NCBI GenBank assembly: GCA_027037615.1
Contig: JALVZN010000051.1
Location: 1 to 36,823, forward strand
Direction: 5' to 3'
DNA from: a candidate division WOR-3 bacterium
GTDB lineage: Bacteria; Hydrothermota; Hydrothermia; B15-G9
Length of the DNA stretch: 36,823 nt
Shown: piece after piece, positions 4,817-34,989 of the stretch
Numbering within the stretch: position 1 is the stretch's first letter
Layout: each line of letters begins with the position of its first letter
Notes under the pieces: model-generated
Databases searched by the model: none
Seen by the model: the letters and a program-made list of their open reading frames with translations, nothing else
What the model was told of the DNA's origin: nothing
Program-made: the position numbers and the translations under genes

Positions 4817-4962
4817 GCAACTACCTCCTTGTTCTCTCAATAATTGTTTTACTATGGCTCCAGCCACTTCCATTGCAAACCTCCATTTTTTTTCTGCCCG
4901 CAGTCATTGTTTATCCGCCATTGACATACATTTAGTAAAATCTCGGATATTCAGTTTTTCTA

Positions 4963-4991
4963 TTATTAAGGCTGTTTTTCAACAGTGTCAA
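4963..4991 (-). promoter_or_regulatory. Candidate sigma70 promoter for the giant repeat gene
   Basis: Minus strand TTGACA (4991-4986), 17 nt, TAATAA(T). Confidence 0.45.
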
Positions 4992-5033
4992 GTCAAATAG
5001 GCACATACACAATGGCACTCAACACATATAATT

Positions 5034-6406: not shown

Positions 6407-6417
6407 TTCAGGCGAAA

Positions 6418-6789
6418 TTATTTAGATGGCTGAGCTGATTTTCCGGGCGCAGTCTCACTCATCGTGCATGTCCCATCAAATATGACCCCATCCTCGACAA
6501 TGAGGCCCTTGCAGTAAAGGTCACCTTTAAATCTTGCACCGGACTGGAATTCGACCTTCTGAGCGATTACCATTTTGCCCTGTATGTGCCCACCTATCTT
6601 CGCATTTTGAGCAAAAATCTCGCCTTCTATCATGCCCGTTTTGCCCACAACGAGCGTCCCCTCGATCTTTATGTTGCCTTTAAATTTACCATCGATGCGG
6701 GTTCCACCTTTCACTTCTATGGTTCCCTCAAATACACCACCCTCACCGACAATCGTATCCATTTTTTCATAAGCTTCTTTTCCCTTCAT
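6418..6789 (-). CDS. Bactofilin (polymer-forming cytoskeletal protein)
   Basis: Beta-helix pattern TIVGEGGVFEGTI...RIDGKFKGNI...LIVEDGVIFDGTCTM; GGAGG upstream. Confidence 0.92.
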   Translation of the reverse strand: MKGKEAYEKMDTIVGEGGVFEGTIEVKGGTRIDGKFKGNIKIEGTLVVGKTGMIEGEIFAQNAKIGGHIQGKMVIAQKVEFQSGARFKGDLYCKGLIVEDGVIFDGTCTMSETAPGKSAQPSK

Positions 6790-6803
6790 GACTTCATTAC
6801 CTC

Positions 6804-10649: not shown

Positions 10650-10676
10650 TTGAATCTCTCCTGATGATGAATTGGA

Positions 10677-19731: not shown

Positions 19732-19963
19732 AGCGCACCAATTTTACCTCTTGCTCCACAATAGTTCAACTTTTGTGGAGCCAAAGTCCAGAAAAGTTCA
19801 AAATAAGGCAGCAGATTCTGGTAGCTTCAGAGCAGCGTCAACGGGCTCAGGATAAAATATTTCCATATCCTTTATCATTACCCCATAACTCTAAGGAGGT
19901 TGACGGGATGCAAGCCAATATTTTGATGGTTTTTGTCCTTTTGTCGGGAACGGCCAAGATTGC
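19637..19963. repeat. Direct repeat copy 2
   Basis: Covers the ATPase 5' end, the divergent intergenic region and the GH57-like 5' end; matches 18078-18400. Confidence 0.93.
19741..19781 (-). promoter_or_regulatory. ATPase promoter overlapped by a 29-bp palindrome (candidate operator)
   Basis: TTGAAC (19769-19764), 17 nt, TAAAAT (19746-19741). Palindrome GCTCCACAA-T-AGTT-C-AACT-T-TTGTGGAGC at 19753-19781; its core is retained at 18195-18221. Confidence 0.65.
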
Positions 19964-22900
19964 CTTTGTTCATCATGGGAATCAATCGCTTGCGGACAAC
20001 GGTTCCCTGGCAATGCAGCAGGGCGACCCCGGCTATGTCGGCAACAGCTACCATCGCACGCTCGACACCCATTTTTATTACGGGAAACCCATCGACATCC
20101 ACATGAGCGGCCCGCTGGCTCAATCTTACGGATGGATGCAGAACGGACACGACATCCTCGGCCGATTGCGCAATTCCGACCTCGTTTATATCGTTGGCGG
20201 CTCTTACGCCGAAAATATCCTGCCTTACGCAGACCGAGAAGTCAACGAATTTTCGATGTGGTATGTTCAGCAGGTCTATGATTCGCTTATCAAAGGCGTT
20301 GGCTATCCTGACTTGCCGAATGTGATCTGGATTCCGGAACGGGTCTGGAAATCGCAGAACCTCATGCCTTACTCGCTCATCGAAGTTTTGAACCAGAAAT
20401 ATGGCAAATTCGATGGCAACGGAAACTATCTGGCGCCGTGCATCCTGTTGGACGACAATGTCCACGAGTGGTATTCTCACACATTCCCCGACGGCACCGA
20501 GTGCCACAATTCGCACAAGGTGCACATCATGTATGACAATTCGGGCAACTATGTCTTCGTGGTGTTTATCCAGCAGCATGCGCGCAACGACTGGGTGTGG
20601 AACGAGGTCTGGAACACATGGACAGGCTCCGAGCACCTCCCTGCGCTTGCCAACGATGCTGATCAGGAGCAGGTCTGCGTCTATGGCGACGACTGGGAGA
20701 AGGCGGCCGGCGTCGCGGGCTGGGATTTCGGCAATCCGGGCGCACCGGCCAACTCTTACGACGCCAACATCGCATGGGCATCCAGTCAGAACTGGATTCA
20801 ATTCGTGCATGTGGCCGAAGTCGCCAGATGGTGGGGCGTCGATAAGCTCTTAGACAACGATCCGAACAACGATCCACCGGCCATCAACATCGACTACGCA
20901 GCTTATCCAGAGCTCCACAGCTGGACGGGCGGCAATTACGACAACTGGTATAACGATTTCAAGAACACGCAGGCATACGGATGCGGGCTCGCTCCCGACC
21001 TCAACGGCAACGGGGTCAATGGCGATTATGAGGATCTCTGGAAAGAGACCTACAATGCGCTCATGTCTGCGCCTGACAACCGCATCTCAAAACTCGGCTG
21101 GGTGACACTTTCCGGAATGCTCTACGAAACCGCATGGCACACAGGTCCCGGCGGCGAGCTGGTCTATTGGGGTCGAAATCTATGGAATCACACGCGTTAC
21201 GGCATACTGTTTGCCGAAGCTGCAAACTGGCTCGATACATGCGCAAGCGTCAACGGCGGACACATCTATGTGGCGGATTTAGATGGCGATGGCATCGACG
21301 AATATGCAATCTACAACTCGAAGATATGGGCGGCGTTCGACAGGCGCGGCGGGCGCGCACTCTTGGTGGCGACATCAGATGGCGATGTCGTTGTGGGCAA
21401 CTTGATGTCGAACTGGGGCAATGAGGGCGATTACGACGATGGTGGGCATCCCGGCCTGTTTCACGATTCGCAGGCCGAAAACTCATGGTTCAATGTGACC
21501 ATCGATTCATCGGGCGATACGGCCATCCTGACACTTTCAGAAGCCTACGATTACAACGGAAATCCATCGACCGATCTCACCAAAACGATCAAACTCGCAT
21601 CAAACGACAGCTATCTCATTGTCCAATACCAGTCCACATGGACCAACTGGACCAAGGCAGGGGTCACGCCGGACATCTGGAATGTGCTTCTGAACGGCTA
21701 TGAGCTCGGTTTCACGAGCGGCATTTCGCCCAACGGATGGGTCTATTCCGGCTGGCAGAACGACCGCACAGGGGCAAAAGCGGTTTTCTTGTGGGCTTCA
21801 GGCAACGGATTGGTGTATCACAACTTAGGCAAAATGGCGTCTGTGGCAGAGAAAATCGAGCTTGGCAACGGCACGAACTACACCGTCTATTTCTATGCGG
21901 GCCGCGGCCAGCCCGATGTCAATGCTCAGGGGCCCGGCGATCAGGAAGGGCCGTTTATCGTTCAGACATGGCAATACCCTGAAGATCAGATCATGGAGAC
22001 GGATTCCGTGCTCGTGGTGTCGAACATCTGGGACATCGGCGGCGTTCAGGGAGCATGGATTCGCTACGGTGTCAACGGGAACTGGTCCTATCCTGACATC
22101 GCAATGGTTCAGGACGACGGCGACACGCATGACTGGGACGGCGACGGTCAGCCCGACCCAAACCTCTGGGGCGGCTACATTCCGCCTCAACCTCTTGGCT
22201 CGCATGTGGAATACGCCATCCGCGCACTTGACAGCTCAAGCAACGAATCATGGGACAACAATTACGGCCAGAACTACGATTATTTTGTCGGAGTCGTCAA
22301 TTTTGACATGGACGGCCAATTAGACAGGGTAGCCACCCTTGCATCCGAGAACGGCGGCATGCACCTCTGGTATTATTTCAGCAGCGACACCTCACGCCTC
22401 TACTTCGCAACCGAGGCGGCCGGAAACGGTTCGGATTCCTACGCAAACGACCACTTCATATTTGTTGCGTTTTCGGACGATTCAACCCTCATGGATGCGC
22501 CATGGGCCAAGAGCGGCAAGGTGGGCCACTATTCGTTTTTCCTTGCGGACGAAAACGATAACGATTTCGTCGGGTGGTTTGACTCCACGGGCAACCTGTT
22601 GAACGACACGACGAAATTCAGGTGTGCAGCTGGGGCCACGGAGAACGACATCCTCGAAGGCGTCCTGTATCTGGACAACATTTTCAACGGCAAGGAGATA
22701 CCACAGGATGTCTGGGTGGCCGTCGGGACATATCAGACACAGGACGGGGGAGCACTTCAGTGGCAGGTGCCAAGACCACCATCCGGCACAATAGACTCCA
22801 TCATCTCCAAAAACGAATTTCTACATATAAATTTCACAACCGGCGTCATCGAAGAGCCCTCCGACAGAGGCCTGCCATCGATCTTTGCGATAAAAGCCTA

Positions 22901-23138
22901 TCCTGTTCCGTTCGGGAACCAGTTAAACCTGAGCTTCAAGCTGTTGAGAAACAGCGACATCCACATAAGGCTCTACAACATATCCGGCAGAATGGTCAGG
23001 AACCTGTTTGACGGCGAACTCGAAAAAGGTCAGCACGACATGAGTTTTGAATGCGACACATTGAGCAGAGGGATTTACTTCATAACCATAACGGACGGCG
23101 AGGAAACCCGCTCGGTAAAAGCCGTGAAGATAGAATGA
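19908..23138 (+). CDS. Secreted modular GH57-like glycoside hydrolase with CBM-like modules and a T9SS-like C-terminal domain (1076 aa)
   Basis: ATG 19908 follows AAGGAGG. GH57-like motifs HHGNQ, WIPERVW (nucleophile Glu), GDDWEK (acid/base Asp), DLDGDGIDEY. Starch-CBM-like WDNNYGQNY. C-terminal YPVPF...LYNISGRMV...GIYFI...VKAVK. Confidence 0.8.
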   Translation: MQANILMVFVLLSGTAKIAFVHHGNQSLADNGSLAMQQGDPGYVGNSYHRTLDTHFYYGKPIDIHMSGPLAQSYGWMQNGHDILGRLRNSDLVYIVGGSYAENILPYADREVNEFSMWYVQQVYDSLIKGVGYPDLPNVIWIPERVWKSQNLMPYSLIEVLNQKYGKFDGNGNYLAPCILLDDNVHEWYSHTFPDGTECHNSHKVHIMYDNSGNYVFVVFIQQHARNDWVWNEVWNTWTGSEHLPALANDADQEQVCVYGDDWEKAAGVAGWDFGNPGAPANSYDANIAWASSQNWIQFVHVAEVARWWGVDKLLDNDPNNDPPAINIDYAAYPELHSWTGGNYDNWYNDFKNTQAYGCGLAPDLNGNGVNGDYEDLWKETYNALMSAPDNRISKLGWVTLSGMLYETAWHTGPGGELVYWGRNLWNHTRYGILFAEAANWLDTCASVNGGHIYVADLDGDGIDEYAIYNSKIWAAFDRRGGRALLVATSDGDVVVGNLMSNWGNEGDYDDGGHPGLFHDSQAENSWFNVTIDSSGDTAILTLSEAYDYNGNPSTDLTKTIKLASNDSYLIVQYQSTWTNWTKAGVTPDIWNVLLNGYELGFTSGISPNGWVYSGWQNDRTGAKAVFLWASGNGLVYHNLGKMASVAEKIELGNGTNYTVYFYAGRGQPDVNAQGPGDQEGPFIVQTWQYPEDQIMETDSVLVVSNIWDIGGVQGAWIRYGVNGNWSYPDIAMVQDDGDTHDWDGDGQPDPNLWGGYIPPQPLGSHVEYAIRALDSSSNESWDNNYGQNYDYFVGVVNFDMDGQLDRVATLASENGGMHLWYYFSSDTSRLYFATEAAGNGSDSYANDHFIFVAFSDDSTLMDAPWAKSGKVGHYSFFLADENDNDFVGWFDSTGNLLNDTTKFRCAAGATENDILEGVLYLDNIFNGKEIPQDVWVAVGTYQTQDGGALQWQVPRPPSGTIDSIISKNEFLHINFTTGVIEEPSDRGLPSIFAIKAYPVPFGNQLNLSFKLLRNSDIHIRLYNISGRMVRNLFDGELEKGQHDMSFECDTLSRGIYFITITDGEETRSVKAVKIE

Positions 23139-23215: not shown

Positions 23216-24460
23216 ATGGTTAGGGTAAAACCGTTCAGAGGATTAAGGCCACCGAAGGAGCTGGCAGCGCTTATAGCCTCGCTGCCGTATGATGTCATGA
23301 GCACGGAAGAGGCCAGAGAGATGGCCAAAGGGAATCCTTATTCCCTGCTTCACATCACCCGTGCCGAGATAGACCTCCCGCCTGGCATCGACGAGCACTC
23401 AGAAGAGGTTTACCGCAAATCGAGAGAGAATTTCCAGAAGTTCCTGAAAAACGGATGGTTAGTTCAGGACAAGGAGCCTCATTTTTACATCTACGCCCAG
23501 ACCATGAACGGACGCACTCAATACGGGATAGTCGGAGGCGCACACTACATGGATTACTACGAGGGACGCATCAAAAAGCACGAATTGACACTCCCCGACA
23601 AGGTGGAAGACCGCACAAAACACATACTCGTCAACAACGCACAGTTGGAGCCCGTTTTTCTGGCATTCCGCGATGTGCCTGAGCTCACTCAGATAATGAT
23701 GGATTGGGTGAAAAACCACGAGCCGGAATACGATTTTGTGGCGGACGACGGCATCGGCCACCATTTCTGGGTGATAACCGATCCAGAGGTCAACCGGGCT
23801 ATCGAGGAGCTGTTCGCCACGAAGGTGCCGCATACCTACATCGCAGACGGACATCACAGGACAGCTGCTGCTGCGCTTGTGGCAAAACGCAAGGCAGAAG
23901 CGAACCCGCATCACACAGGCGAAGAGGAATACAACTACATAATGGCCGTCCACTTCCCGCACAACCAGCTGAAGATCCTCGAATACAACCGTGTTATAAA
24001 GGATCTAAACGGCCACACGCCTGAGGAGTTCCTCAACCTGTTAAAACAGCACTTCGATGTTCAGGAGTGGAAAGAGCCCTATAAGCCCGACAGGGAATGC
24101 ATGTTCGGCATGTATCTCGACGGCAAATGGTATAAGCTGATGGCCAAATCTCACACATGCAGCACGGATCCGGTCGAAGGCCTCCATGTCAGCATCCTGT
24201 CGAAATATGTGCTCTATCCGCTTCTCGGCATCAAAGACCTCAGGCGGTGCAAGAGAATCGACTTCGTCGGCGGAATTAGAGGCCTCAAAGAGCTTCAACG
24301 CAGGGTGGACAGCGGAGAGATGGCGATTGCGTTTGTGCTGTATCCCACGAGGATAGAGGAGGTAATGCGGATAGCTGACGAGGGCAAGATAATGCCCCCG
24401 AAAAGCACATGGTTTGAGCCAAAACTGAGGAGCGGACTGGTTATACACAAGTTGGATTGA
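23216..24460 (+). CDS. DUF1015 family protein
   Basis: VKPFRGLRP, LPYDV, IKKHELT, IADGHHR, MPPKSTWFEPKLRSGL. Confidence 0.93.
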   Translation: MVRVKPFRGLRPPKELAALIASLPYDVMSTEEAREMAKGNPYSLLHITRAEIDLPPGIDEHSEEVYRKSRENFQKFLKNGWLVQDKEPHFYIYAQTMNGRTQYGIVGGAHYMDYYEGRIKKHELTLPDKVEDRTKHILVNNAQLEPVFLAFRDVPELTQIMMDWVKNHEPEYDFVADDGIGHHFWVITDPEVNRAIEELFATKVPHTYIADGHHRTAAAALVAKRKAEANPHHTGEEEYNYIMAVHFPHNQLKILEYNRVIKDLNGHTPEEFLNLLKQHFDVQEWKEPYKPDRECMFGMYLDGKWYKLMAKSHTCSTDPVEGLHVSILSKYVLYPLLGIKDLRRCKRIDFVGGIRGLKELQRRVDSGEMAIAFVLYPTRIEEVMRIADEGKIMPPKSTWFEPKLRSGLVIHKLD

Positions 24461-24559: not shown

Positions 24560-25771
24560 TTACTTCACAATGATGAGCTTCCTGAGTGTGCCGTCCTTGC
24601 CGCGCCACAGGTAAACGCCGGGCTTTGCAAGCGACGATGTATCGCGTGCAACTACCCTTCCGGTGACATCAAAGACAGCAGGAGTGGGCTTTTGCGAAGG
24701 CAACGGCAATCCATGGACATCTTCCTCAACTGACTGAAGCCTTTTGTGGAATTCCAGAGAATCTATAACCGCGCCATCGGTCGCCCTGATGGCCTTGATG
24801 GACATGACAGTATCGGTAACAGTCACAAGCACATAGTGATAGCACGATGCTGAATATGCCACCCACGAGGCGGAGCCGGGTGTATAAAGCGGAGCGCCAC
24901 CGCCGCCTGTAACGATGTAAGTCACGCCATTTATGGGGACAGACCTCTGGTAAAAGTGGTTGTGGCCGTTGAAAACGATCGGCACGCCGTATGATTCCAA
25001 AATGTCACACCACGCAGCCCTGACATCGTAGTCGGAACCGTGCCCTCCAGCACTGTAAGGCGGACGATGGAAATAAACCACCACCCATTTTGACGAATCC
25101 TGAGTTATCTCCTCCAGCCTTTGTTGCAGGTATGTCCTTTGCGATGAATAGTCGATCGTCTCAGTGTTAAGTGCTATGAAAACCACATTTCCATACTCAA
25201 AGGTGTAATACCGTTCGTTTTCCGGAAGGTGGAAAAACTGGCGATAGATGTAGGAAGGGGTATCGTGATTGCCAATCGTGGGCATAATAGGCGAGTTGTG
25301 CAGAAGATCGGCCTCAATGGCGAAGAACTCATACCAATCGTCGATGTCGTTTCCATGTCCAACCATGTCGCCCGTATTGATGACAAAATCAGGATCCTGC
25401 TGTGCTATCGCATCGACAACCATTTGATGGGCAGCGGAATCTGACCTGTTATCGCCATAGACTACAAACCTGATGGTATCGGCGGACAGAGGAGCGGTGC
25501 GAAAACTGTAAATCGGTGTGGAATAACTGCTTCCAGCGACCTTGTAGATGTAGCGATGTCTCGGAGTTAGGCCTGTCAACTTAAAGGAATGGGCTATAAC
25601 TGAAGCTGTATCCCAGACCGTGTCAGTAAGCGACCCGACGCCATAAGCTATGAACCCCGAATCGGCAACAACGCTATACCACGATATGGTTATGGTGGTG
25701 GAGGTTGAATCCTCCCAATTCATATACGGCCCCAATCTCAACTGTATGAGGGCAAAGAAAACGGTTAACAT
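24560..25771 (-). CDS. Secreted purple-acid-phosphatase-like metallophosphoesterase with FN3-like N-domain and a short T9SS-like tail
   Basis: YGDNR, NTGDMV, GNHD, FHRPPYS, GHNHFYQR, VTGGGG; tail VFDVTGRVV...PGVYL...KLIIVK. Confidence 0.88.
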   Translation of the reverse strand: MLTVFFALIQLRLGPYMNWEDSTSTTITISWYSVVADSGFIAYGVGSLTDTVWDTASVIAHSFKLTGLTPRHRYIYKVAGSSYSTPIYSFRTAPLSADTIRFVVYGDNRSDSAAHQMVVDAIAQQDPDFVINTGDMVGHGNDIDDWYEFFAIEADLLHNSPIMPTIGNHDTPSYIYRQFFHLPENERYYTFEYGNVVFIALNTETIDYSSQRTYLQQRLEEITQDSSKWVVVYFHRPPYSAGGHGSDYDVRAAWCDILESYGVPIVFNGHNHFYQRSVPINGVTYIVTGGGGAPLYTPGSASWVAYSASCYHYVLVTVTDTVMSIKAIRATDGAVIDSLEFHKRLQSVEEDVHGLPLPSQKPTPAVFDVTGRVVARDTSSLAKPGVYLWRGKDGTLRKLIIVK

Positions 25772-25912
25772 CTCGTGCCTCCTCGTATAAGCTATCGGCT
25801 TAACAGCTCATTGTTGCAAAAGCTTATTTTCACAAAAAAAACACTTTGATGTGATACAGATCAAAAATCGGCGACAAAGAAATTACGGTTCCCCTCATTC
25901 ACAACAAACTCC

Positions 25913-25940
25913 TTGAAGTAGAAGCAAGTTACCTTATAAT
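25913..25940 (+). promoter_or_regulatory. Candidate sigma70 promoter of the four-gene membrane operon
   Basis: TTGAAG, 16 nt, TATAAT. Confidence 0.55.
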
Positions 25941-25995
25941 AGACTTGCGCTTTTTTGCTGAAATATGGGTCAAAAGAAAAATTGGAGGGTTCCTG

Positions 25996-27099
25996 ATGAC
26001 AGGGGTCTTACTTATAGCATTTTTGATAGGGCAAAGTGCCCCCAATGGGTTTACTTTCAAGGCCTTTGACACTCCTAACGATCAGGGAAATTCTATCACG
26101 CTTGAATGGTCAGGGGATACAACTCCGATCAAGATAGTAAGGATATTCCGAGCCGACAATGCAGTAGGGCCATTCACCCCCATAAAGATACTCTTCGGAA
26201 ACATCCACTCCTACGATGACAAGGATGTGAAAGACGGCAAACCTTACTACTACAAAGTCATTCTGATTACAACGGAGAATGAGATCATATCGTCACCTGT
26301 TCTCGGGCCGGTAAGCAGCAAGCCGTCATGGTTCGACATGTCAAAACTCCCACTCTTCATCGTCCTCGCATTCTACATACTGGTGCTGCTTTATTACATC
26401 CTGTCCGCTCGAAAAGGGAAAGAGATCAAGTTAAGGCCAATAGCCGGGTTAAACGCAATAGACGAAGCGGTCGGCCGTGCGGCTGAGATGGGTCGCCCGA
26501 TACTTTTCACCACGGGCTTGCTCAGCATCGACAACCTCTCAACCATAGCGGCGCTTAACATCCTCGCACATGTGGCTAAGAAAGCAGCACAATACCAGAC
26601 GAGGCTGATCGTCCCGAACTACAACCCTGCCGTCTATACCGTCGCAGAAGCCATTGTCAGAGAATCATATCTTGCTGCTGGTCGTCCGGATCTTTTCAAC
26701 AGCGACGACATATTCTACATTTCCAGCCGTCAGTTCGGATATGCAGCTGGCGTCACAGGTGTCATGCTGCGTGAGAAAACAGCTGCACACTTCTTCATGG
26801 GGTACTACTTCGCAGAGGCTCTCCTGCTGACCGAGGTCGGCGCCTCAACTGGCGCAATTCAGGTCGCTGGAACCGACGCAATCACCCAGTTGCCGTTCTT
26901 CATCGTAACATGCGACTACACTCTGATCGGAGAAGAGCTCTACGCTGCAAGCGCTTATCTCTCGAAAGATGCACTGCTCGCAGCCACGATCAAAGGTCAG
27001 GACATCATGAAAGCGGTCATAATCGCTTTCCTAGTGATATTCTTCTTCGTTGCGATTGGCGCCGAAAGCCTGGCCATGAAAGTGGCCAACCTGTTATAA
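25996..27099 (+). CDS. FN3-like domain + TM + DUF6754-like domain membrane protein
   Basis: ATG 25996 follows GGAGG. FN3 pattern SITLEWS...YDDKDVKDGKPYYYKV; TM; then LRPIAGLNAIDEAVGRAAEMGRPI...QLPFFIVTCDYTLIGEELYAASAYL. DUF number recalled from motif, not searched. Confidence 0.75.
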   Translation: MTGVLLIAFLIGQSAPNGFTFKAFDTPNDQGNSITLEWSGDTTPIKIVRIFRADNAVGPFTPIKILFGNIHSYDDKDVKDGKPYYYKVILITTENEIISSPVLGPVSSKPSWFDMSKLPLFIVLAFYILVLLYYILSARKGKEIKLRPIAGLNAIDEAVGRAAEMGRPILFTTGLLSIDNLSTIAALNILAHVAKKAAQYQTRLIVPNYNPAVYTVAEAIVRESYLAAGRPDLFNSDDIFYISSRQFGYAAGVTGVMLREKTAAHFFMGYYFAEALLLTEVGASTGAIQVAGTDAITQLPFFIVTCDYTLIGEELYAASAYLSKDALLAATIKGQDIMKAVIIAFLVIFFFVAIGAESLAMKVANLL

Positions 27100-27113
27100 C
27101 AGGAGGTTAAACA

Positions 27114-27734
27114 ATGAAGCGATTTCTGAGTAGAACATTACCTCTTTTGATGGTGTTAATTTTCGGTGTTCTCGGTGCCATCCAGTATTTTGTGCCACAC
27201 AAAGTCTCACAGGTTTATTACAGAACCATTTTGACATGGGCCATCGGTGTATCGTCCATGGCTGTCATAATGGCTGCCATCAGCTTCTTGAGATACCACT
27301 ACAAAAAGATCATGAGCTCCGAGGGCGATACTCTCTATTCATCGATAGCCCTTGTGGCGTTCCTGGCAATGCTCGGATTTGGCGCATTCGGAACCGATAA
27401 GGGCAGCCTGTTCTATCAGTTCTATCAGAACATTTTCGTCCCGATAAACTCGACAATGTTCTCACTGTTAGCATTCTACATGGCATCCGCATCTTACAGG
27501 GCGTTCAGAGCCAAGACATTCGAAGCCGCTTTGCTGCTCACAGCGGCAATCATCGTCATACTCGGCACAACCCCCATCGGAAGCTCCATACTCCTCGACA
27601 AAGTCACGATGTGGATAATGAGCATACCAAATCTTGCACAGAAACGCGGCATATTGATAGGAGTCGGGCTTGGTGCTACGGCAACTTCTTTGAAAATAAT
27701 TCTCGGCATTGAAAAGAACTGGCTTGGAGGATGA
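27114..27734 (+). CDS. Uncharacterised polytopic membrane protein (about 5-6 TM)
   Basis: AGGAGG upstream; hydrophobic; STMFSLLAFYMASASYRAFR and RGILIGVGLGA. Confidence 0.85.
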   Translation: MKRFLSRTLPLLMVLIFGVLGAIQYFVPHKVSQVYYRTILTWAIGVSSMAVIMAAISFLRYHYKKIMSSEGDTLYSSIALVAFLAMLGFGAFGTDKGSLFYQFYQNIFVPINSTMFSLLAFYMASASYRAFRAKTFEAALLLTAAIIVILGTTPIGSSILLDKVTMWIMSIPNLAQKRGILIGVGLGATATSLKIILGIEKNWLGG

Positions 27735-28609
27735 AAATGGGCAAATTTGATATTTCCAACATAGACAGAAGATGGATTTACATAACAATTTTGTTGGGAG
27801 CCCTGCTTCCGCTATTCGTTCCGATAACATTCGCTCCGAAGATCTCGCCTGAAGTCAAAGCGGTTTACGACTACATCGATAAACTGCCTCCGGGATCAGT
27901 TATACTGCTCTCGTTCGACTACGGTCCGAGCACTTTGCCCGAAACCGAACCGATGGCGGAAGACATAATGAAACACGCCTTTATAAACGGCGTTCGTGTC
28001 ATCGGGATATCCCTCACCGAGGAAGGGGCTCTCCTCGCCCTTAAAGCTTACAACAATGTCGTCAAAGAATTTGAGAATTACGGAACGATAAAGGTCAATT
28101 ACGGCTACGATTTCGTGTTTCTCGGTTACAAAAGCGGTCGTCAGGCCGTCATCCTGAGCATAGGAGAGGATATAAGAAAAACATTTCCGACCGATTATCA
28201 GGGCACCAGCATTGATGACATCCCCATGATGTTCAATGTTAAGAACTACAAGGACATCTCGCTGGTAGTCGATATCTCCTCAACAAATACGCCCAATGAC
28301 TGGATAACTTACGCTTATTCAAGGTATAAAGTTCCGGTGGCCGTCGGGGTCACAGCGGTGCTTGCAGCAAACTATTATCCGTTCATTCAGACAGGGCAGA
28401 TCATAGGCTTGATCGGAGGCGTTAAAGGTGCGTCCGAATACGAGTACCTCGTAAACCAGAAAATTCAGTCCAACTGGGGGATGAAACCGAAACGAATGCC
28501 CGCAATGCGCAACATGTCAGCTCTTACTGTCGCAGAACTGTTGATAGTGCTGTTCATCATACTTGGTAACATCGGTTACTTTTCCCAAAAAGGCAATAAA
28601 AGGAGGTAG
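27731..28609 (+). CDS. Uncharacterised protein: alpha/beta domain between two TM anchors
   Basis: ATGA overlap with the previous gene; TM at both ends; VILLSFDYGP, FVFLGYKSG, GLIGGVKGASEYE. Confidence 0.85.
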   Translation: MKMGKFDISNIDRRWIYITILLGALLPLFVPITFAPKISPEVKAVYDYIDKLPPGSVILLSFDYGPSTLPETEPMAEDIMKHAFINGVRVIGISLTEEGALLALKAYNNVVKEFENYGTIKVNYGYDFVFLGYKSGRQAVILSIGEDIRKTFPTDYQGTSIDDIPMMFNVKNYKDISLVVDISSTNTPNDWITYAYSRYKVPVAVGVTAVLAANYYPFIQTGQIIGLIGGVKGASEYEYLVNQKIQSNWGMKPKRMPAMRNMSALTVAELLIVLFIILGNIGYFSQKGNKRR

Positions 28610-28615
28610 CCAGTC

Positions 28616-29248
28616 ATGGCTATAAGCTCATCGATATGGGTATGGATAGCAGCATTTTTGACACTGGCAGTATTTTCATTCCTTTACAAAGACAACATCA
28701 TTTACAAAATGGTCGAAGCACTTTTTGTGGGAGTTAGTGCTGGATATTCAATCGTCATCATATTGAAACATTCCTTTGTGCCAAATATCTGGACGCCGCT
28801 TTTCGTCAGCCACAACCTTCTGTATCTGATACCGTTCCTGCTTGGACTTCTTTTCTTTGCAATGCTATCTCGGAAAACTGCTTATCTAACCCATATTCCT
28901 TTCGCTTTCCTGATCGGAAGCGGTGCCGGTTTTGCGCTGCCGCTTGTGTTTCAGACAAATGTCATGGCTCAGGTGAAAGGCACAATGCTGTTCGCTCCAA
29001 GTCACTACTCATCATTGGGAGCCTTCGTCAACGCTCTCATAATCTTCATCGGGGTTCTGACAGTGCTGTTCTATTTCTTTTTCTCAAGGGGCGAGAAAAC
29101 TAACAGGAGCATCATAGTCAAGACCGGGATAGCCTTCATCATGGTGGGATTTGGAGCATCGTTCGGTTACACGGTGATGGCCCGTCTATCCCTACTCGTG
29201 GGAAGGCTATACTTCTTATTTGGGACATGGCTGGGAATCCTTCATTGA
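28616..29248 (+). CDS. Uncharacterised polytopic membrane protein (about 6 TM) with an internal repeat
   Basis: AGGAGG upstream; LTLAVFSFLYKDN...FVGVSAGY and LTVLFYFFFS...MVGFGASFGYTV. Confidence 0.85.
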   Translation: MAISSSIWVWIAAFLTLAVFSFLYKDNIIYKMVEALFVGVSAGYSIVIILKHSFVPNIWTPLFVSHNLLYLIPFLLGLLFFAMLSRKTAYLTHIPFAFLIGSGAGFALPLVFQTNVMAQVKGTMLFAPSHYSSLGAFVNALIIFIGVLTVLFYFFFSRGEKTNRSIIVKTGIAFIMVGFGASFGYTVMARLSLLVGRLYFLFGTWLGILH

Positions 29249-29313
29249 TTTTTGATTTGCAAGGTGCAAATACAGGGGGCTGCCGAAAGTGTGATTATAG
29301 GCCTCTTGCGGAT

Positions 29314-29329
29314 TGGCACACTTATTGCA
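29314..29329 (+). promoter_or_regulatory. Sigma54 (-24/-12) promoter of the pilin gene
   Basis: TGGCAC-ACTTA-TTGCA with canonical GG-N10-GC spacing. Confidence 0.85.
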
Positions 29330-29381
29330 AGAATAATATAGTGGTTCTTTGACAAGAAAGAAAAAAACAGGAGGTAGAACC

Positions 29382-29897
29382 ATGAGGCGTAAAGGCTTTA
29401 CGCTCATAGAGCTTATGATCGTGGTGGCAATCATAGCCATCCTGGCGTCAATCGCCATACCGCAGTACAAGAAGTTCCAGCTCAAAGCCAAGACATCTGA
29501 GGCTAAGAGCAATATCGGCGCAATCAGGAGCGCTGAGGAGACATACTCCGCTGAGCACGATGTGTATCTGAAAGCACAGGCGAGTCCGGGCACGGTGCCG
29601 GGTGCTCAGGCTGCTGATTGGCCTGCCGATGCCGGTGGATTTGATGACATAGGCTTCAAACCTGCTGGCAAAGTTTATTACAGCTACTGGGTAGGTGAAG
29701 ACACAACAACTGCTAATACCAACGACAATGGAACTGTTGTGGCTAATGATAGTGTCAACATCTATATCATGGCAGAAGGCGACCTTGACGAGAACGGCGG
29801 AGCTGGTGAGGCCCCCGCACTCAATGCTAACGATGGTGTGTTCTATGCAAGCGACGAAGATCCCAAGATTAACGATATGCATCCGGGCAAATTCTAA
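29382..29897 (+). CDS. pilA: Type IVa pilin (PilA-like)
   Basis: ATG 29382 follows AGGAGG. Class III signal MRRKG|[22 protein letters not shown] with E5 and P22, then [11 protein letters not shown]. Confidence 0.9.
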
Positions 29898-29924
29898 TAC
29901 GATTATCTCATCTACAGCCGTCAG

Positions 29925-29958
29925 AGGGAGAGGATTTGTTCCTCTCCCTTTTTATTTT
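29925..29958 (+). terminator. Intrinsic terminator after the pilin gene
   Basis: AGGGAGAGGA-TTTGT-TCCTCTCCCT followed by TTTTATTTT. Confidence 0.85.
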
Positions 29959-30647: not shown

Positions 30648-32054
30648 TCATTTAACGGGTTTGAAGTTGTCGGGATTGCTGATGTAAGCCTTAAGTTCTC
30701 TCATGGCCACCCCACTTAAGAGGAAAAGCGCCACAAGGTTGGGCAGCGCCATGAAGCCGTTGAACACATCCGAGATGTTCCACACGATACCGAGGCTGGC
30801 CACTGCACCTATCGGTATGAGCACAATCCACAGGATTTTATACCAGAAGATGACTTTCGGGCTGTCGAACAGGTATTCAATTCCCTTCTCCCCGTAGAAA
30901 TACCAGCCGATAAGCGTGGAATATGCGAAGAGCGCAAGGCCAAGGTTGACGATCCAGCTGCCGACATTGCCAATTCCGAGCTGGAACGACTTTGCCGTCA
31001 GAGCGGCGCCGTTCAGCTCACCTGTGGAATAAAAACCTGCGACGATTATGACCAATGCCGTCATCGTGCAGATGACGATGGTGTCGATGAACGGGCCGAG
31101 CATTGCGACGATGCCCTCGCGGGCAGGCAGATTGGTTCGAGCCGCCGAATGTGCCATCGGTGCGGTTCCAAGCCCGGCTTCATTCGAGAAAATCCCTCTC
31201 GCAAATCCCATCCTCATTACATAGAGCACAGCCGTTCCAAGTATCGCCCCGCGCGCAGCGTGACCTGTAAATGCCTCTGTGAATATCAACTTGAAGGCGT
31301 CCAACAACTTATCGTAATTGATGACGAGTATTGTCAGGGCGCCGAGCACATAGAAGACGCTCATCGTCGGGGTCAACCTTGATGCGACCTGAGCTATCCT
31401 CTTGATGCCTCCGATGATGACGAGCCCTGTGAGAGCCGCCAGAACGAGCCCTATGACAAGCTTGACATAGAAAAGGGTGTTAGCTGATGCGTTTGCGCCT
31501 GAAATCAATCTGCTCAGCGCATCTGCAACGGAATTCGCCTGCACAGTGTTGCCAATTCCGAACGCCGCAATCGCTGTGCTAAGGGCGAAGAAAACCGCAA
31601 GCCACTTAAAGTTCCAACCGTAGCGCTCCTTGATCCCCATCTCGATGTAATACATCGGGCCACCTTTAACGCTGTCCTTCGTGACCTTACGGTATTTGAC
31701 CGCAAGCGTTGCTGAGGTGAATTTCACTGCCATTCCAAAAAGAGCGGATATCCACATCCAGAAAACGGCGCCTGGCCCACCAGCGTATATGGCGGTGGCA
31801 ACGCCCGCAATGTTGCCCGTGCCGATGGTCGCCGAAAGAGCTGTTGAAAGCGCCTGAAAATGCGTTATGTGCCCCTCGTGCTCAGGACGGTCGAATTTGC
31901 CGCTGATCAGGCCTATCGCATGTTTGAAAAGGCGAATTTGCACGAATTTGGTCCTGATGCTCAAGTATATGCCTGTAAGCAGGATGACGATGATCATCGG
32001 CAGGCCCCACACAAAATCCGAGAGCCAGTTCACCAAGCTTTTCAACACTTCCAT
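30648..32054 (-). CDS. Alanine/glycine:cation symporter (AGCS family)
   Basis: FQALSTALSATIGTGNIAGVATAI, GGPGAVFWMW, GGPMYY, RGIFSNEAGLG, FIDTIVICTMT, MALPNL. Confidence 0.95.
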   Translation of the reverse strand: MEVLKSLVNWLSDFVWGLPMIIVILLTGIYLSIRTKFVQIRLFKHAIGLISGKFDRPEHEGHITHFQALSTALSATIGTGNIAGVATAIYAGGPGAVFWMWISALFGMAVKFTSATLAVKYRKVTKDSVKGGPMYYIEMGIKERYGWNFKWLAVFFALSTAIAAFGIGNTVQANSVADALSRLISGANASANTLFYVKLVIGLVLAALTGLVIIGGIKRIAQVASRLTPTMSVFYVLGALTILVINYDKLLDAFKLIFTEAFTGHAARGAILGTAVLYVMRMGFARGIFSNEAGLGTAPMAHSAARTNLPAREGIVAMLGPFIDTIVICTMTALVIIVAGFYSTGELNGAALTAKSFQLGIGNVGSWIVNLGLALFAYSTLIGWYFYGEKGIEYLFDSPKVIFWYKILWIVLIPIGAVASLGIVWNISDVFNGFMALPNLVALFLLSGVAMRELKAYISNPDNFKPVK

Positions 32055-32074
32055 TTCACCACTCCTGTTTTTAG

Positions 32075-32110
32075 AAAAAGAGCGGCAGGCTGAACCACCA
32101 CCTGCCGCTC
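32075..32110 (-). terminator. Intrinsic terminator between the SSS and AGCS genes
   Basis: Minus strand GAGCGGCAGG-N11-CCTGCCGCTC-TTTTT. Confidence 0.75.
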
Positions 32111-32117
32111 AACCTTC

Positions 32118-33542
32118 TTAATCCTTAACGCCACGAATTGAGTCTATGATGTAGCCTAAGAAAAGGAAGAAAATCGCCGATGCGACGCTTCCATAAGTCT
32201 TATCGATGTGGAACCAGCCAAGCCTGTTGGCTATCACACAGATGAAAATCACTATCGTGCCGCCGATGAACGCCATCTTCACGCCGAGTTTGCTCGTCCA
32301 CGGCCTCAGATAAATGCCAGCAAGTATGACTATTGCGCCTATCGCACGAATCGCATAAGAGACATAGGCGGAATCGAGAATTGCGCCTTTTATGATGATT
32401 GCAAGCGGGATGGTGATGAGGTTTATCCATATCACAAGCTGCCTTGAGGATTTCAACAGCGTTGCGTCATCGGCATCCCGTTTCAGGAGGTTATGGTAGA
32501 TGTCCCTGATGGTTATCGTAACGACGGCGAAGTTCACCGGGCCAACGGTCGAAAGTATTGCGGCCATGATGCCGGCTATGGCAATTCCGCCTATCACAGG
32601 ATGGATGAAATTGGTGCTCATCAAGAGCTTCGGCAGCACCTGTTTTGTGTTCTCTATGGTCGAAGGATCGAAGAACCTGCCCGTTCTGGCTATCAAGCCG
32701 AGGAAAGCGACCATCACGCCGAACGGTGCAATTATCAAACTTGAAAGGACAGCGGCTTTTTTCGCCACGCTCGGCGTTTTCGCGGCGAAGACAGGCTGAA
32801 TGCTTGCCTGTCCGGCCATCCCACCGAGTATCCCACCAAGGAGCAGAGAGAAGGCGTAGCTTATGTTCGTGCTGAACGGGTTATAGAAATTGGACGGCGA
32901 GCCTGTTGCGATCAGTGCCTGCTGCAACCCGTGAAAGCCTCCGATCCTGTGCATGCCTATGACAAAGGCGAGTCCAAGCCCGAGGAACATGGTCACCACA
33001 TGTATGACACCGGTAATCGCTATGGCGTGCATTCCCCCCATGTATGTGTAGAAAGTGATTATCACGGAAGCGATTATCACTCCCCAGAACCAGTTTATGT
33101 CGAACAGCCTTGAGACCACACCGGCGAAGGTCTGAAGCTGCACATAGGAGAGGGTGATGTAGGCTATCAGAAATGCGATGGCGGAAATCGTGCGCACATC
33201 CCGACCGAACAGGTGCTCCAGCATCTCACTTACGGTGTAAACCCCATATTTGCGGTAATGATAGGCCACTGTGAAGCCGATTATGACCATTCCGGTAGCT
33301 GTGGCGAGGTTGTAAAGCATCGGCTGAAGCGTCCCGATCTTGAACGCCTTTTCGCTGACGCCGATGGTGCTCATCCCACCGAGCCATTCAGCTGCAACGA
33401 CAACCGCACATGTGATCACGCCGAGGTTACGACCTGCAATCAGGAAATCTGCGGATGTCCTTGTGGCAAGCTTTTTGGTGAAGACCGATACCAACATGAC
33501 AAACAGGAAATACGCCGTGACTATTGCTATGTACACGATCAT
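32118..33542 (-). CDS. Sodium:solute symporter (SSS) family transporter
   Basis: DFLIAGRNLG, YTYMGGMHAIAIT, AGIMAAILST; about 13 TM. Confidence 0.9.
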   Translation of the reverse strand: MIVYIAIVTAYFLFVMLVSVFTKKLATRTSADFLIAGRNLGVITCAVVVAAEWLGGMSTIGVSEKAFKIGTLQPMLYNLATATGMVIIGFTVAYHYRKYGVYTVSEMLEHLFGRDVRTISAIAFLIAYITLSYVQLQTFAGVVSRLFDINWFWGVIIASVIITFYTYMGGMHAIAITGVIHVVTMFLGLGLAFVIGMHRIGGFHGLQQALIATGSPSNFYNPFSTNISYAFSLLLGGILGGMAGQASIQPVFAAKTPSVAKKAAVLSSLIIAPFGVMVAFLGLIARTGRFFDPSTIENTKQVLPKLLMSTNFIHPVIGGIAIAGIMAAILSTVGPVNFAVVTITIRDIYHNLLKRDADDATLLKSSRQLVIWINLITIPLAIIIKGAILDSAYVSYAIRAIGAIVILAGIYLRPWTSKLGVKMAFIGGTIVIFICVIANRLGWFHIDKTYGSVASAIFFLFLGYIIDSIRGVKD

Positions 33543-33679
33543 CTCTCATCTCCTGGTTTTGTTGTTCTGATGGGACAAAATCTTACTGGAACTCAGCAGG
33601 TTTCTCAAATCTTATCGGCTTATACCCCATGTTATCCGCAACTTACCGTTCATGTATCGGGTTTCCATGTGTATAATCA

Positions 33680-34951
33680 ATGACTATGAAAGCATTAAAG
33701 AAACTCGGGTTAACCAGGGACAGTCTTGCGTGGGCGCTATACGATTGGGCCAATTCAGCTTATGCCACGGTAGTCCTTGCCGCAGTGCTGCCGGCTTATT
33801 ACGCATCTTATGTGGCATCCCCGTTGCCTGCATACCTGAGAACGGCATACTGGGGTTATACCAATTTCATAGCAACGGCCCTGATAGCCATAATCGCCCC
33901 GATAATCGGAGGCATTTCCGACAGGTCCGCCAGCAGGAAAAAGTTCTGGATAGGGTTCGCTCTGCTCGGAATACTCGGAACCGGATTGCTCTACTATGTC
34001 GATAAAGGCGATTACCTCATGGCATCCGCACTGTTCATTGTCTCAATGCTCGGGTTCGGAGCCGCAAATGTGTTCTACGACAGCTTCCTCATTCAGGTTT
34101 CATCGCACAAAACATCCGATTTCGTGTCCAACCTCGGCTACGCTCTGGGCTACATCGGCGGCGGCATATTGCTGGCCATAAACCTCCTGATGATTCAAAA
34201 ACCGCATCTGTTCGGGCTTGAGAACCCGGTTCAGGCTATAAAGATAGGCTTCGTGCTCGTTGCGTTGTGGTGGCTTGTGTTCTCCATACCGTCGTGGATG
34301 CTGATACATGAGGAACGAGAGGAGCACCACATCCCGCTTAAAGAGGCCGCCCTCGATGGAATTGTGCATTTCGTGCGGATATTCAAGGAGATAGTGAAGA
34401 TTAGGAATGTCCTCATTTTTCTGATCGCATACTGGCTATACAACGATGGCATATCGACAATCATCAAGATGGCTGTGGTTTATGGCAAAGAGATAGGCAT
34501 CGGGAACGACGCCTTAATTCTGGCAATATTGATGGTTCAGTTCGTGGCGGCTCCGTTTGCCCTGTTGTTCGGCGTCATAACGCGCTTCATCCCGACCAAA
34601 TTTGCGCTATTTATCACGCTTGCAGTGTATTCAATCATCGCCGTTTTCGGCTATTACATGAAAGATGCGCACGACTTTTTTATTCTTGCCTTTCTGGTGG
34701 CGACGGTGCAGGGAGGGGCACAGGCGTTGAGCCGCAGCATGTTTAGCAGGTTGATACCTCCGGAGAAGAGGGCCGAATATTTCGGTTTCTTCTCCATGTC
34801 AGGCAAGTTTGCGAGCATATTTGGGCCGCTCCTCATGGGGATAGTGACACAGGAGACGGGCTCCGGCAGGAACGGCATCCTCATTCTGGTCGTGCTGTTC
34901 GTGCTTGGAGGGATTGTTCTCGGTTTTGTGAAGGAGAAACCGGCGACATAG
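33680..34951 (+). CDS. MFS transporter (UMF1/Atg22-like); start may be 33686
   Basis: WALYDWANSAY, NVFYDSFL, GYALGYIGG, YWLYNDG, QALSRSMFSRLIP. Confidence 0.92.
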   Translation: MTMKALKKLGLTRDSLAWALYDWANSAYATVVLAAVLPAYYASYVASPLPAYLRTAYWGYTNFIATALIAIIAPIIGGISDRSASRKKFWIGFALLGILGTGLLYYVDKGDYLMASALFIVSMLGFGAANVFYDSFLIQVSSHKTSDFVSNLGYALGYIGGGILLAINLLMIQKPHLFGLENPVQAIKIGFVLVALWWLVFSIPSWMLIHEEREEHHIPLKEAALDGIVHFVRIFKEIVKIRNVLIFLIAYWLYNDGISTIIKMAVVYGKEIGIGNDALILAILMVQFVAAPFALLFGVITRFIPTKFALFITLAVYSIIAVFGYYMKDAHDFFILAFLVATVQGGAQALSRSMFSRLIPPEKRAEYFGFFSMSGKFASIFGPLLMGIVTQETGSGRNGILILVVLFVLGGIVLGFVKEKPAT

Positions 34952-34954
34952 GCC

Positions 34955-34981
34955 GTTGCGGGCGGCTTCGCCGCCCGCAAC
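34955..34981. terminator. Hairpin between the convergent MFS genes
   Basis: GTTGCGGGCGGC-TTC-GCCGCCCGCAAC, a perfect 12-bp stem. Confidence 0.7.
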
Positions 34982-34989
34982 AATATAAT

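Follow-up and report, generated by a model that had tools for sequence, protein, structure and literature searches.

A DUF6754 four-gene membrane cassette of a candidate division WOR-3 bacterium and its putative seven-gene system with a GlmL-like ATPase

What kind of membrane system do four tightly packed genes encode in a 36,823-nt stretch of DNA (the window) from a candidate division WOR-3 bacterium? A preliminary description of this locus had attached the label "DUF6754-like" to it and had proposed a new class of secondary transporter or a trans-membrane sensor. The four genes, here called A to D (Table 1), are co-directional, and the coordinates of the ORF list gave the same intergenic gaps as had been described, namely 14, -4 and 6 nt, with an overlap of 4 nt between the start of C and the stop of B. 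The ORF of A ends at 27099 and opens at 25945 or 25996, and a Shine-Dalgarno-like GGAGGG lies 7 nt 5′ of the ATG at 25996. The single candidate promoter that had been described for the four genes was found upstream of A; it is a consensus match and by itself weak evidence, since the region contains 10 promoter-like sites and shuffled versions of it contain 5.8 ± 2.5. A type IV pilin-like ORF comes next after D, and the terminator-like hairpin lies beyond this ORF, not directly 3′ of D; the stretch 29349-29897 lies between D and the hairpin. In a search of sequencing runs by sampled words, nine DNA runs matched at least half of the words from 25900-29300, those with labels being hydrothermal-vent metagenomes, and no RNA run was listed for this region.

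Table 1. Features of the cassette region, with positions in the window, strand and description
Gene A	25996..27099	+	367 aa from ATG at 25996; PF20539, E 3e-105
Gene B	27114..27734	+	206 aa, polytopic membrane protein, no known family
Gene C	27731..28609	+	292 aa; extracytoplasmic Rossmann-like alpha/beta domain between two TM helices
Gene D	28616..29248	+	210 aa, polytopic membrane protein, no known family
Fn3 domain of A	26053..26313	+	residues 20-106
DUF6754 region of A	26320..27060	+	residues 109-355; alpha/beta core = residues 145-325
Promoter-like site TTGAAG-16-TATAAT	25913..25940	+	10/12 consensus matches; 5′ of A
Terminator-like hairpin	29923..29951	+	12-bp stem and T run; first strong one 3′ of D

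We analyzed the four proteins by profile searches, AlphaFold2 models and Kyte-Doolittle scans over 19 residues. The label given to the locus was borne out by A, which scored 351.4 bits on PF20539 (DUF6754), where the Pfam gathering score is 27, over profile positions 2-248 of 257. The model of A (pLDDT 92.8) comprises the Fn3 domain, a TM helix at 115-139, an alpha/beta domain at 150-323 and C-terminal helices; hydrophobic TM segments were found at 118-136 and 337-355, and a short hydrophobic helix at the N-terminus stands ahead of the exported Fn3 domain. Because an ARKGK stretch follows the first TM segment, the Rossmann-like DUF6754 core of A is predicted to be cytoplasmic. The model of C (pLDDT 94.7) shows a TM helix at 13-29, an alpha/beta domain at 40-249 and a second TM helix at 257-291, and both ends of the protein probably lie inside the cell, since conserved Arg residues stand before the first and after the second helix. 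B and D have five and seven hydrophobic segments, respectively. These results agree with the proposed set of two polytopic and two membrane-anchored alpha/beta proteins, one with an Fn3 domain.

Within the module, mean pairwise identity was highest in the DUF6754 core of A (63.3%), and reached 55.8% in the C-terminal half of B, 45.6% in D and 41.1% in the ectodomain of C, while the Fn3 domain of A was the most variable part (27.5%). Longer, fused forms of D were found in 10 proteins, eight of them in one-member clusters, and their extra domains were inconsistent. An A-B-A′-B′ internal duplication was considered and rejected, as the hhalign probability was 4% when B was compared with D and 1.7% when A was compared with C. 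A complex prediction with A (residues 108-367), B, C and D, in which D was scored, gave 0.76 in three runs, 0.00 and 0.00 in controls with D replaced, and 0.72 in a control with C replaced, so that these scores argue neither for binding nor against it.

The preliminary description had seen no Walker, EAA, HisKA or redox motif and had set the locus apart from the ABC, TRAP, ECF and two-component classes. Our scans led to the same result. Walker A, EAA, H-box, CxxC, CxxCH and [ST]GA[ST] motifs were all absent from A-D, which together hold one Cys. Against Pfam and NCBIfam, A-D showed no match to ABC_tran or BPD_transp at E ≤ 0.1 and none to HisKA or HATPase_c, and no match to TRAP, ECF or redox families was found in these collections or in the motif scan. 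Among the sequences of solved structures, A was matched only through its Fn3 domain, B and D had zero matches in the PDB, and the best match of C was not below E 0.39. Fold searches with the ectodomain of C returned only generic Rossmann-like matches, and those with the model of A, Fn3 included, returned lists filled by Fn3 domains.

We then surveyed the gene neighbourhoods of A homologues, as the preliminary description had suggested. The 80 loci surveyed come from many phyla and contain 97 A genes, of which 81 have B, C and D directly behind them at median gaps of 10, -1 and 1 nt, and conservation of this order at so many homologues and loci excludes a chance arrangement. As for the other 16 A genes, six had room downstream and ten lay near a locus end; A genes standing alone occur in locus L055, as second copies in L062 and L072, and as an extra A in L034. 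The 2.06-Mb genome of the window contains three paralogous cassettes with the same order, one of them being that described here. The system is present in metagenome-assembled genomes (MAGs) labelled Candidatus Eisenbacteria, Zixiibacteriota, Poribacteria, Latescibacterota and Stahlbacteria, and also in MAGs labelled Nitrospira, anammox Planctomycetota, Ignavibacteria and Candidatus Methylomirabilis. Judged by sequence comparison, the cassette of the window is a typical member of the DUF6754 (PF20539) four-gene cassette family, which is catalogued in Pfam without a described function. A consistent cargo gene beside the cassette, also anticipated earlier, did not emerge: the 131 immediate neighbour genes fall into 121 Pfam families, the commonest being DHQS and AP_endonuc_2 with 9 members each, in loci that apparently belong to Poribacteria. 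Lipoate-ligase domains were present in 3 of the 131 flanking genes, too few to speak for a link with lipoate, and B12 mutase families were absent from their 25 commonest Pfam families.

Three further genes of this genome, each in single copy, encode putative cytoplasmic partners of the cassette: a GlmL-like ATPase of about 600 aa with the ASKHA (actin/Hsp70) fold (contig C180, E 7e-129), P with 373 aa (contig C72, E 6e-133) and S with 125 aa (contig C121, E 1e-35). They are dispersed over three contigs, none of which is that of the cassette. The ATPase matched PF13941 over its full length (E 4e-128), and its motifs DxGSTTTK, TSSAGGG, DxGGATTD and GSGG show no variation among 14 sequences, with identities of 62-70% across phyla in these 14 and 67-83% within the phylum of the window. 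P, which shares 58% identity with a homologue in a Desulfuromonadaceae-labelled MAG, appears to consist of a hybrid-barrel N-domain, an alpha/beta centre and a KOW-like end (about 375 aa), as suggested by weak, sub-threshold matches to hybrid-barrel (RnfC_N, NqrA_N), KOW and TIM phosphate-binding segments. A lipoyl- or biotinyl-type swinging-arm site in P is unlikely, given that the lysine of the "IAETK" hairpin varies (Q, S, R, N).

GlmL, or MutL, is an accessory protein of the coenzyme-B12-dependent glutamate mutase. The ATPase resembles GlmL/MutL and the GlmL-related Or-4 (PF13941) in its full-length match and its ASKHA nucleotide-binding motifs, but it stays below the NCBIfam cut-offs for GlmL (231 against 475 bits for the equivalog NF040745, and 223.5 against 600 bits for NF040744) and below the TIGR01319 subfamily cut-off (170 against 204 bits), and passes only the broad Pfam MutL model. 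It further differs from GlmL by a C-terminal extension of about 150 aa and by its pairing with P, S and the membrane cassette. For the cytoplasmic domain of A and for B, C, D, P and S, we found no studied family or structure beyond generic Rossmann-like folds. Against the sequences of solved structures, P had no match below E 0.01 and the ATPase only a chance-level match to MgtE (E 0.009); the Protein Atlas clusters nearest to D and to P are unnamed or hypothetical; and none of the seven system proteins matched a PADLOC anti-phage defence model at E ≤ 0.01. Literature searches for DUF6754, PF20539 or PF13941 returned no paper. Those for GlmL name phrases returned only a paper on ThiC, which appeared unrelated from its listing, and for those combining GlmL, membrane and actin-like ATPase, nothing among the 20 listed of 535 papers looked relevant by title and the start of the abstract.

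How are these partners tied to the cassette? The ATPase gene lies within 10 kb of the cassette in 22 of the 80 loci, and in 19 of these 22 the order is ATPase-P-A-B-C-D; of the 14 loci examined for S, 12 have it as the gene immediately before the ATPase. In the remaining 58 of the 80 loci, and likewise in this genome, no ATPase gene is next to the cassette. We checked five genomes of other candidate phyla whose cassette locus lacks the ATPase, and all five carry the ATPase (65-70% identity) and P elsewhere. Of 121 genomes from the phylum of the window, 111 have A and 109 have P; of 61 genomes, 57 have the ATPase and 57 have S. The ten genomes without A all belong to one genus and all lack P, and the five of them that were tested also lack PF13941 and S; this joint absence counts as a single evolutionary event, and related genomes are not independent samples. 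Among the A-positive genomes, a match was missing for P in two (94% complete), for the ATPase in one and for S in one. A genome of this phylum has 1-5 matches to A, and mostly one each to P and the ATPase. The ATPase and P are also known as fusions, one a protein of 950 aa and the other a 988-aa frame from another phylum. Taken together, these genome comparisons show that the A-D module belongs to a putative seven-gene system with the ATPase, P and S.

Based on this distribution, on the invariant ATPase motifs and on the conservation gradient within the module, we propose that one ATPase engine serves several paralogous membrane modules, and that ATP turnover is coupled to a trans-membrane process, a reading to which we give a little less than an even chance. 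A-D would putatively form a complex in the inner membrane. In this complex, the strongly conserved DUF6754 domain of A on the cytoplasmic side, and perhaps the conserved half of B with it, may serve as the constant docking face for S, the ATPase and P. On the periplasmic side, the fast-evolving Fn3 domain and the ectodomain of C may set the specificity of each paralogous module. The module would then link ATP turnover by the ASKHA protein to a trans-membrane process, of which substrate movement is the likeliest. A narrower version is a new class of primary transporter or translocase, in which substrate-specific four-protein modules are energised by the shared ASKHA ATPase working with two cofactor proteins; this is possible but clearly the more doubtful statement. 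In ECF and MsiK-type ABC importers, several membrane modules share one ATPase, and the layout proposed here would be analogous. The likeness lies in the diverged modules, 1-5 per genome, and in one conserved nucleotide-binding set encoded elsewhere; unlike those importers, the present system shares no homologous component with them and has the ASKHA fold instead of an ABC ATPase, Walker A and EAA. To our knowledge, no ASKHA ATPase is known to energise a transporter, and we know of no description of ASKHA-type energy coupling in prokaryotic transport.

Could the system be a trans-membrane sensor instead, as had also been proposed? The Fn3 domain and the ectodomain of C would then sense the outside, and the signal would pass through DUF6754 to the ASKHA protein, acting as a regulator and not as a motor. 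Several links to transcription are consistent with this. In one genome of the phylum, a diverged ATPase paralogue of 705 aa with an N-terminal GntR HTH domain stands directly before a P-like gene and A-B-C-D, and frames of 731 and 743 aa occur in two others. In the genome of the window, the ATPase gene is flanked by a PALP enzyme gene and a sigma-70-family gene, with its stop overlapping the sigma-70 start, and the gene after the ATPase encodes a sigma-70 homologue in 9 of 30 loci of the phylum, which all come from three families of the window's class. However, kinase, HTH, GGDEF and receiver domains are all missing from the standard ATPase, P, S and A-D, the HTH form is an addition found in a minority beside the standard set, and the sigma-70 adjacency is limited to one class and could be inherited synteny. 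Moreover, several modules on one very conserved ATPase would be unusual for sensors. We consider the sensor unlikely, and a weaker reading than an ATP-driven membrane machine.

An actin-fold protein may also be held by membrane partners in order to organise the envelope without transporting any solute. In MreB-MreCD and PilM-PilNO, a cytoplasmic protein of this fold acts together with membrane proteins, some bitopic and others small and polytopic, and the present system resembles these complexes in composition, including bitopic proteins with a domain on either side of the membrane. Almost every genome of the phylum has the system, and the ATPase is strongly conserved there, which looks like housekeeping, and the pilin-like gene after D in the window would suit such a biogenesis or scaffold complex. 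Against this, no Pfam or NCBIfam scan revealed similarity to Mre or Pil proteins, the ATPase belongs to the GlmL/hydantoinase-A branch, and pilins are not among the commonest flanking families in other loci. The 1-5 diverged modules per genome, with their variable ectodomains, fit specificity better than a single scaffold. A scaffold complex is improbable in our estimate.

We also weighed a membrane-docked enzyme, in which the ATPase and P would form an ATP-dependent enzyme like the related hydantoinase/oxoprolinase-type ASKHA proteins, and the modified compound would be delivered or removed by the A-D module (vectorial metabolism). When P is aligned across phyla, some 100 of 375 columns are invariant, with many polar or charged residues among them, A is rich in invariant charged residues in its cytoplasmic domain, and the ATPase also matches Hydantoinase_A around its phosphate-2 motif. 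The fusions of the ATPase with P fit this reading as well. However, P matches no enzyme family beyond its weak sub-threshold matches, and a conserved metabolic neighbour is absent among the 131 flanking genes. The probability of this enzymatic reading is slim.

A stand-alone secondary transporter with an incidental ATPase association, close to the self-contained carrier of the preliminary description, would explain why this genome and the 58 loci have no adjoining ATPase. The co-occurrence of the module with P, S and an ATPase whose nucleotide-binding motifs are invariant speaks against it, as do the joint loss of the whole set in one genus, the occurrence of the ATPase and P away from the cassette in each of the five checked genomes and the ATPase-P-A-B-C-D order of the 19 loci. 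A-D also lack similarity to secondary-carrier families in Pfam and NCBIfam, and we regard this transporter as very unlikely. A divergent Rnf/Nqr-like ion-pumping redox complex is close to refuted: the Na+-NQR/Rnf inventory of a soluble subunit with a hybrid-barrel N-domain, a pair of polytopic subunits with some 200 aa each and bitopic alpha/beta subunits is similar, and P has its weak matches to RnfC_N and NqrA_N, but hhalign against the Rnf-Nqr subunit alignment of this lineage gave probabilities of 0.5% for B and 2.2% for D, PF02508 was unmatched in the Pfam scan of A-D, these proteins with their one Cys have no flavinylation, Fe-S or heme motif, and the genome encodes separate, genuine Rnf/Nqr subunits.

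If the proposed ATP-driven membrane machine is real, a seven-gene membrane-plus-ATPase system has gone unstudied although it is present in most genomes of a phylum. Conservation as strong as that of the ATPase across phyla usually marks core cell functions. The ATPase and P are extremely conserved and almost universal in the phylum, which would be compatible, too, with a housekeeping role in the envelope or in an enzymatic process, as opposed to nutrient uptake. Elucidating the function of the system would give thousands of "hypothetical" membrane proteins a role and correct the label "glutamate mutase L" on its ATPase, and it could bring to light a novel mode of ATP coupling at the membrane.

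The four cassette genes, A to D, are co-directional and separated by 14, -4 and 6 nt, exactly as the preliminary description gave, and the ATG at 25996 is the likely start of A because it is preceded by GGAGGG. A single candidate promoter had also been proposed; a promoter-like site does lie upstream of A, but the scan that detected it counted 10 such sites where 5.8 were expected across the region, which makes it weak evidence alone. No terminator-like hairpin was found directly 3′ of D, and the first strong one comes after the ORF that follows; this ORF is a type IV pilin-like gene, has a promoter-like site of its own and has no further pilus genes nearby.

Coordinates of the features in the window and in other loci (L, locus examined; G, genome; C, contig)
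Feature	Locus	Position	Strand	Detail
1624-aa ORF	window	2-4873	-	no Pfam match
C25 gingipain-like peptidase	window	6804-10649	-	with propeptide
1121-aa protein	window	19773-23138	+	type IX secretion sorting tail
DUF1015 protein	window	23216-24460	+	E 8e-114
Purple-acid-phosphatase-like metallophosphoesterase	window	24560-25771	-	Fn3-like N-domain
Promoter-like site TTGAAG-16-TATAAT	window	25913-25940		upstream of A; consensus scan
Gene A	window	25945/25996-27099	+	ORF; 367 aa from ATG 25996
Gene B	window	27114-27734	+	ORF, 206 aa
Gene C	window	27731-28609	+	ORF, 292 aa
Gene D	window	28616-29248	+	ORF, 210 aa
Promoter-like site, pilin-like gene	window	29313-29342		
Type IV pilin-like gene	window	29349-29897	+	N_methyl motif E 1e-9; starts 100 nt after D
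Terminator-like hairpin	window	29923-29951		
Carrier cluster	window	30648-36177		
ARPP-1 domain protein	L004 (C107)	3385-4299	+	304 aa; PF20208, E 3e-62
Sigma-70-family gene	L006 (C180)	8981-9826	-	regions 1.2, 2, 3, 4
ATPase of window's genome	L006 (C180)	9826-11724	-	632 aa; PF13941, E 7e-129
Extra A	L034	8729-9817		ahead of full cassette
Solitary A	L055	9902-11035		
Second A, solitary	L062	16986-18149		
Second A, solitary	L072	11131-12300		
Inserted transport genes	L078	4395-8684	+	Latescibacterota MAG
ATPase-P fusion	L089 (G095:C22)	4760-7612	-	950 aa
ATPase-P fusion frame	G134:C17	25817-28639		988 aa
ATPase with N-terminal GntR HTH	L092 (G004:C40)	6101-8218	-	
P-like gene	L092 (G004:C40)	5083-6108	-	
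A-B-C-D	L092 (G004:C40)	3910-1784	-	

A database of one genome per species was searched with an alignment of three A paralogues, which confirmed at least 569 DUF6754 A sites, and the best 80 of these were analysed as loci. Their MAG labels include Candidatus Eisenbacteria, Zixiibacteriota, Poribacteria, Stahlbacteria, Latescibacterota, Edwardsbacteria, Fermentibacteria, Cloacimonadota, Ignavibacteria, Nitrospira, Brocadiaceae/Scalindua, Methylomirabilis and Dormiibacterota, among others. Using subunit HMMs built from the three copies in the window's genome on ORFs called in these 80 loci, we found that 81 of 97 A genes have B, C and D immediately behind them in the order of the window, with median gaps of 10, -1 and 1 nt in the 81 complete cassettes. 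The other sixteen A genes comprise 10 within 2300 nt of a locus end and six with room downstream. With such room, B was undetected after A in L016 and D was undetected in L069; an extra A preceded the full cassette of L034, and three loci carried solitary A genes (L055, L062 and L072). The window's genome holds three cassettes of the same order, namely that of the window and a tandem pair on an 8.9-kb contig. Independent occurrence of the four genes, the contrary outcome set in advance, was thus not what we found, since 81 of the 97 sites and all three cassettes of this genome keep the order. An ARPP-1 domain protein is encoded between the two tandem cassettes. The survey of neighbourhoods for cargo genes came out negative: the flanks differ by lineage, and the 131 immediate neighbours fell into 121 Pfam families, with no attached 'cargo' gene among them.

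The protein anatomy proposed from the sequence, two polytopic proteins and two membrane-anchored alpha/beta proteins, one of them with an Fn3-like domain, agreed with hydrophobic windows (five in B, seven in D) and with AlphaFold2 models of A and C. A matches Pfam DUF6754 (PF20539) at E 3e-105. In its model (pLDDT 92.8) a short helix opens the chain, a beta-sandwich spans residues 20-106, and a long transmembrane helix (115-139) leads to a five-stranded alpha/beta domain (150-323); the helices of the C-terminal end contain a second hydrophobic segment (337-355). From the conserved ARKGK stretch after the first transmembrane helix and the positive-inside rule, we infer that the DUF6754 domain is cytoplasmic and the Fn3 domain outside. 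C was predicted (pLDDT 94.7) as an alpha/beta domain between two transmembrane helices, and this domain should face the periplasm, because conserved arginines stand ahead of the first helix (R13, R14) and past the second. Both the DUF6754 domain of A and the ectodomain of C are three-layer sandwiches of Rossmann-like type; no specific structural relative was singled out for either, and one may still exist. Duplication between B and D or between A and C was undetectable by hhalign (4% and 1.7%). As had been noted for Walker, EAA, HisKA and redox-cofactor motifs, the motif scan of A-D was empty, with no Walker A, EAA, H-box, CxxC, CxxCH or flavinylation-type motif and one cysteine in all four proteins together.

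A GlmL-like ATPase of the ASKHA (actin/Hsp70) fold lay within 10 kb of the cassette in 22 of the 80 loci. In 19 of these 22, a partner of about 375 aa (P) stood between the ATPase and A, in the order ATPase-P-A-B-C-D. Of 14 loci examined, 12 encode a conserved small protein of about 110-130 aa (S) in the ORF immediately upstream of the ATPase. The window's genome carries a single PF13941 protein, a single P (373 aa, contig C72; 58% identical to a homologue in a MAG labelled Desulfuromonadaceae) and a single S (125 aa, C121, E 1e-35), separated from one another and from the cassettes. Five of five genomes of other phyla whose cassette locus lacks the ATPase carry it (65-70% identity) together with P elsewhere, the two being adjacent in four. 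Of 121 genomes sampled from the window's phylum, 111 gave A and 109 gave P; the 10 A-negative genomes all belong to one genus and all lack P, and PF13941 and S were absent from the five of them tested. In a subsample of 61 of these genomes at least 90% complete, the ATPase and S were each detected in 57, the three genomes of the A-negative genus being negative for both. The mismatches (A without P in G101 and G059, no ATPase in G059, no S in G048) came from fragmented assemblies 94-96% complete. The joint absence in the A-negative genus is supportive rather than statistical evidence, because it counts as a single evolutionary event and close relatives do not give independent observations. Within the phylum, A gave 1-5 matches per genome and P and the ATPase mostly one full-length match each, while some genomes hold a second, diverged set (43-49% identical). 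Taken together, these results show that the conserved four-gene unit belongs to a seven-gene system of single-copy ATPase, P and S with multi-copy modules. The ATPase and P genes of L078, upstream of A-B-C-D, are separated by genes for a family-5 solute-binding protein and two Opp-type ABC permeases.

The ATPase matches Pfam MutL/GlmL end to end, falls under the NCBIfam GlmL cut-offs (231 vs 475, 223.5 vs 600, 170 vs 204) and extends by about 150 aa at its C terminus. Sequences across phyla share 62-70% identity with the copy in the window's genome, and those within its phylum 67-83%; the ASKHA motifs DxGSTTTK, TSSAGGG, DxGGATTD and GSGG show no variation among 14 aligned sequences, so that a working nucleotide site is likely. 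The copy in the window's genome also carries about 20 inserted residues near residue 480 (alignment columns ~617-636), rich in E, K and D and seen in none of the 13 other aligned sequences. P has about 100 of 375 columns invariant across phyla; it showed only sub-threshold similarity to hybrid-barrel (RnfC_N, NqrA_N, biotin-lipoyl) and KOW models, no related solved structure at the sequence level, and only unnamed nearest clusters in the Atlas. Two ATPase-P fusions, one in a phylum genome and one in a genome of another phylum, both with a P-like region lacking the KOW-like end, support the view that the ATPase and P probably function jointly. A diverged minority paralogue of the ATPase bears a GntR HTH at its N terminus; in L092 it stands directly ahead of a P-like gene and A-B-C-D, which may form an autoregulated second system. 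In the window's genome, the stop of the ATPase gene and the start of a sigma-70-family gene overlap. Of 30 phylum loci, 9 have a sigma-70 homologue after the ATPase, and all 9 belong to three families of the window's class.

The claim that the module matches no characterised system held in the searches made, as Pfam, NCBIfam, PADLOC and solved-structure searches gave no studied relative beyond generic Rossmann-like folds. Pfam covers only subunit A of the cassette, as a DUF; B, C and D had no family match at a meaningful level in Pfam or NCBIfam, and B and D no solved relative at the sequence level. PADLOC models matched none of the seven proteins, and literature searches turned up nothing relevant on the system.

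Mean pairwise identity was 63.3% for the cytoplasmic DUF6754 core, 55.8% for the C-terminal half of B and 45.6% for D, and 41.1% and 27.5% for the outer parts, the C ectodomain and Fn3. We propose that each module would dock a common engine of ATPase, P and S through its constant cytoplasmic side, that the variable outside parts may give each module its specificity, and that ATP turnover would be coupled to a trans-membrane process, most likely transport. In ECF transporters and some ABC importers, several membrane modules use one common ATPase; their layout is alike, whereas their parts are unrelated to the seven-gene system. To our knowledge, an ASKHA-driven transporter has no precedent.

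A sensor, with the modules perceiving rather than transporting, is unlikely, and so, to the same degree, is a scaffold of the envelope; a membrane-docked enzyme seems slightly less probable again. A stand-alone secondary carrier is improbable. The earlier interpretation is supported in part: the module is heteromeric and uncharacterised, but its link to an ATPase speaks against a self-sufficient carrier. An Rnf/Nqr-like pump can be practically dismissed, as the likeness is only compositional, with hhalign probabilities of 0.5% and 2.2%, cofactor motifs absent and Rnf/Nqr subunits of the genome's own.

Large secreted proteins surround the cassette in the window, and a conserved DUF1015 protein is encoded two genes upstream. 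Just downstream lies a cluster of four conventional carriers (a Na+:alanine symporter, an SSF-family symporter, an Atg22-like MFS and another MFS protein), so the genome does not lack ordinary secondary transporters. The window copy is an ordinary member of the unstudied DUF6754 family, and the kind of system matches nothing studied. We hold tentatively, at a little under even chances, that several paralogous modules are served by one shared ATPase engine, whose turnover would be coupled to a process across the membrane.
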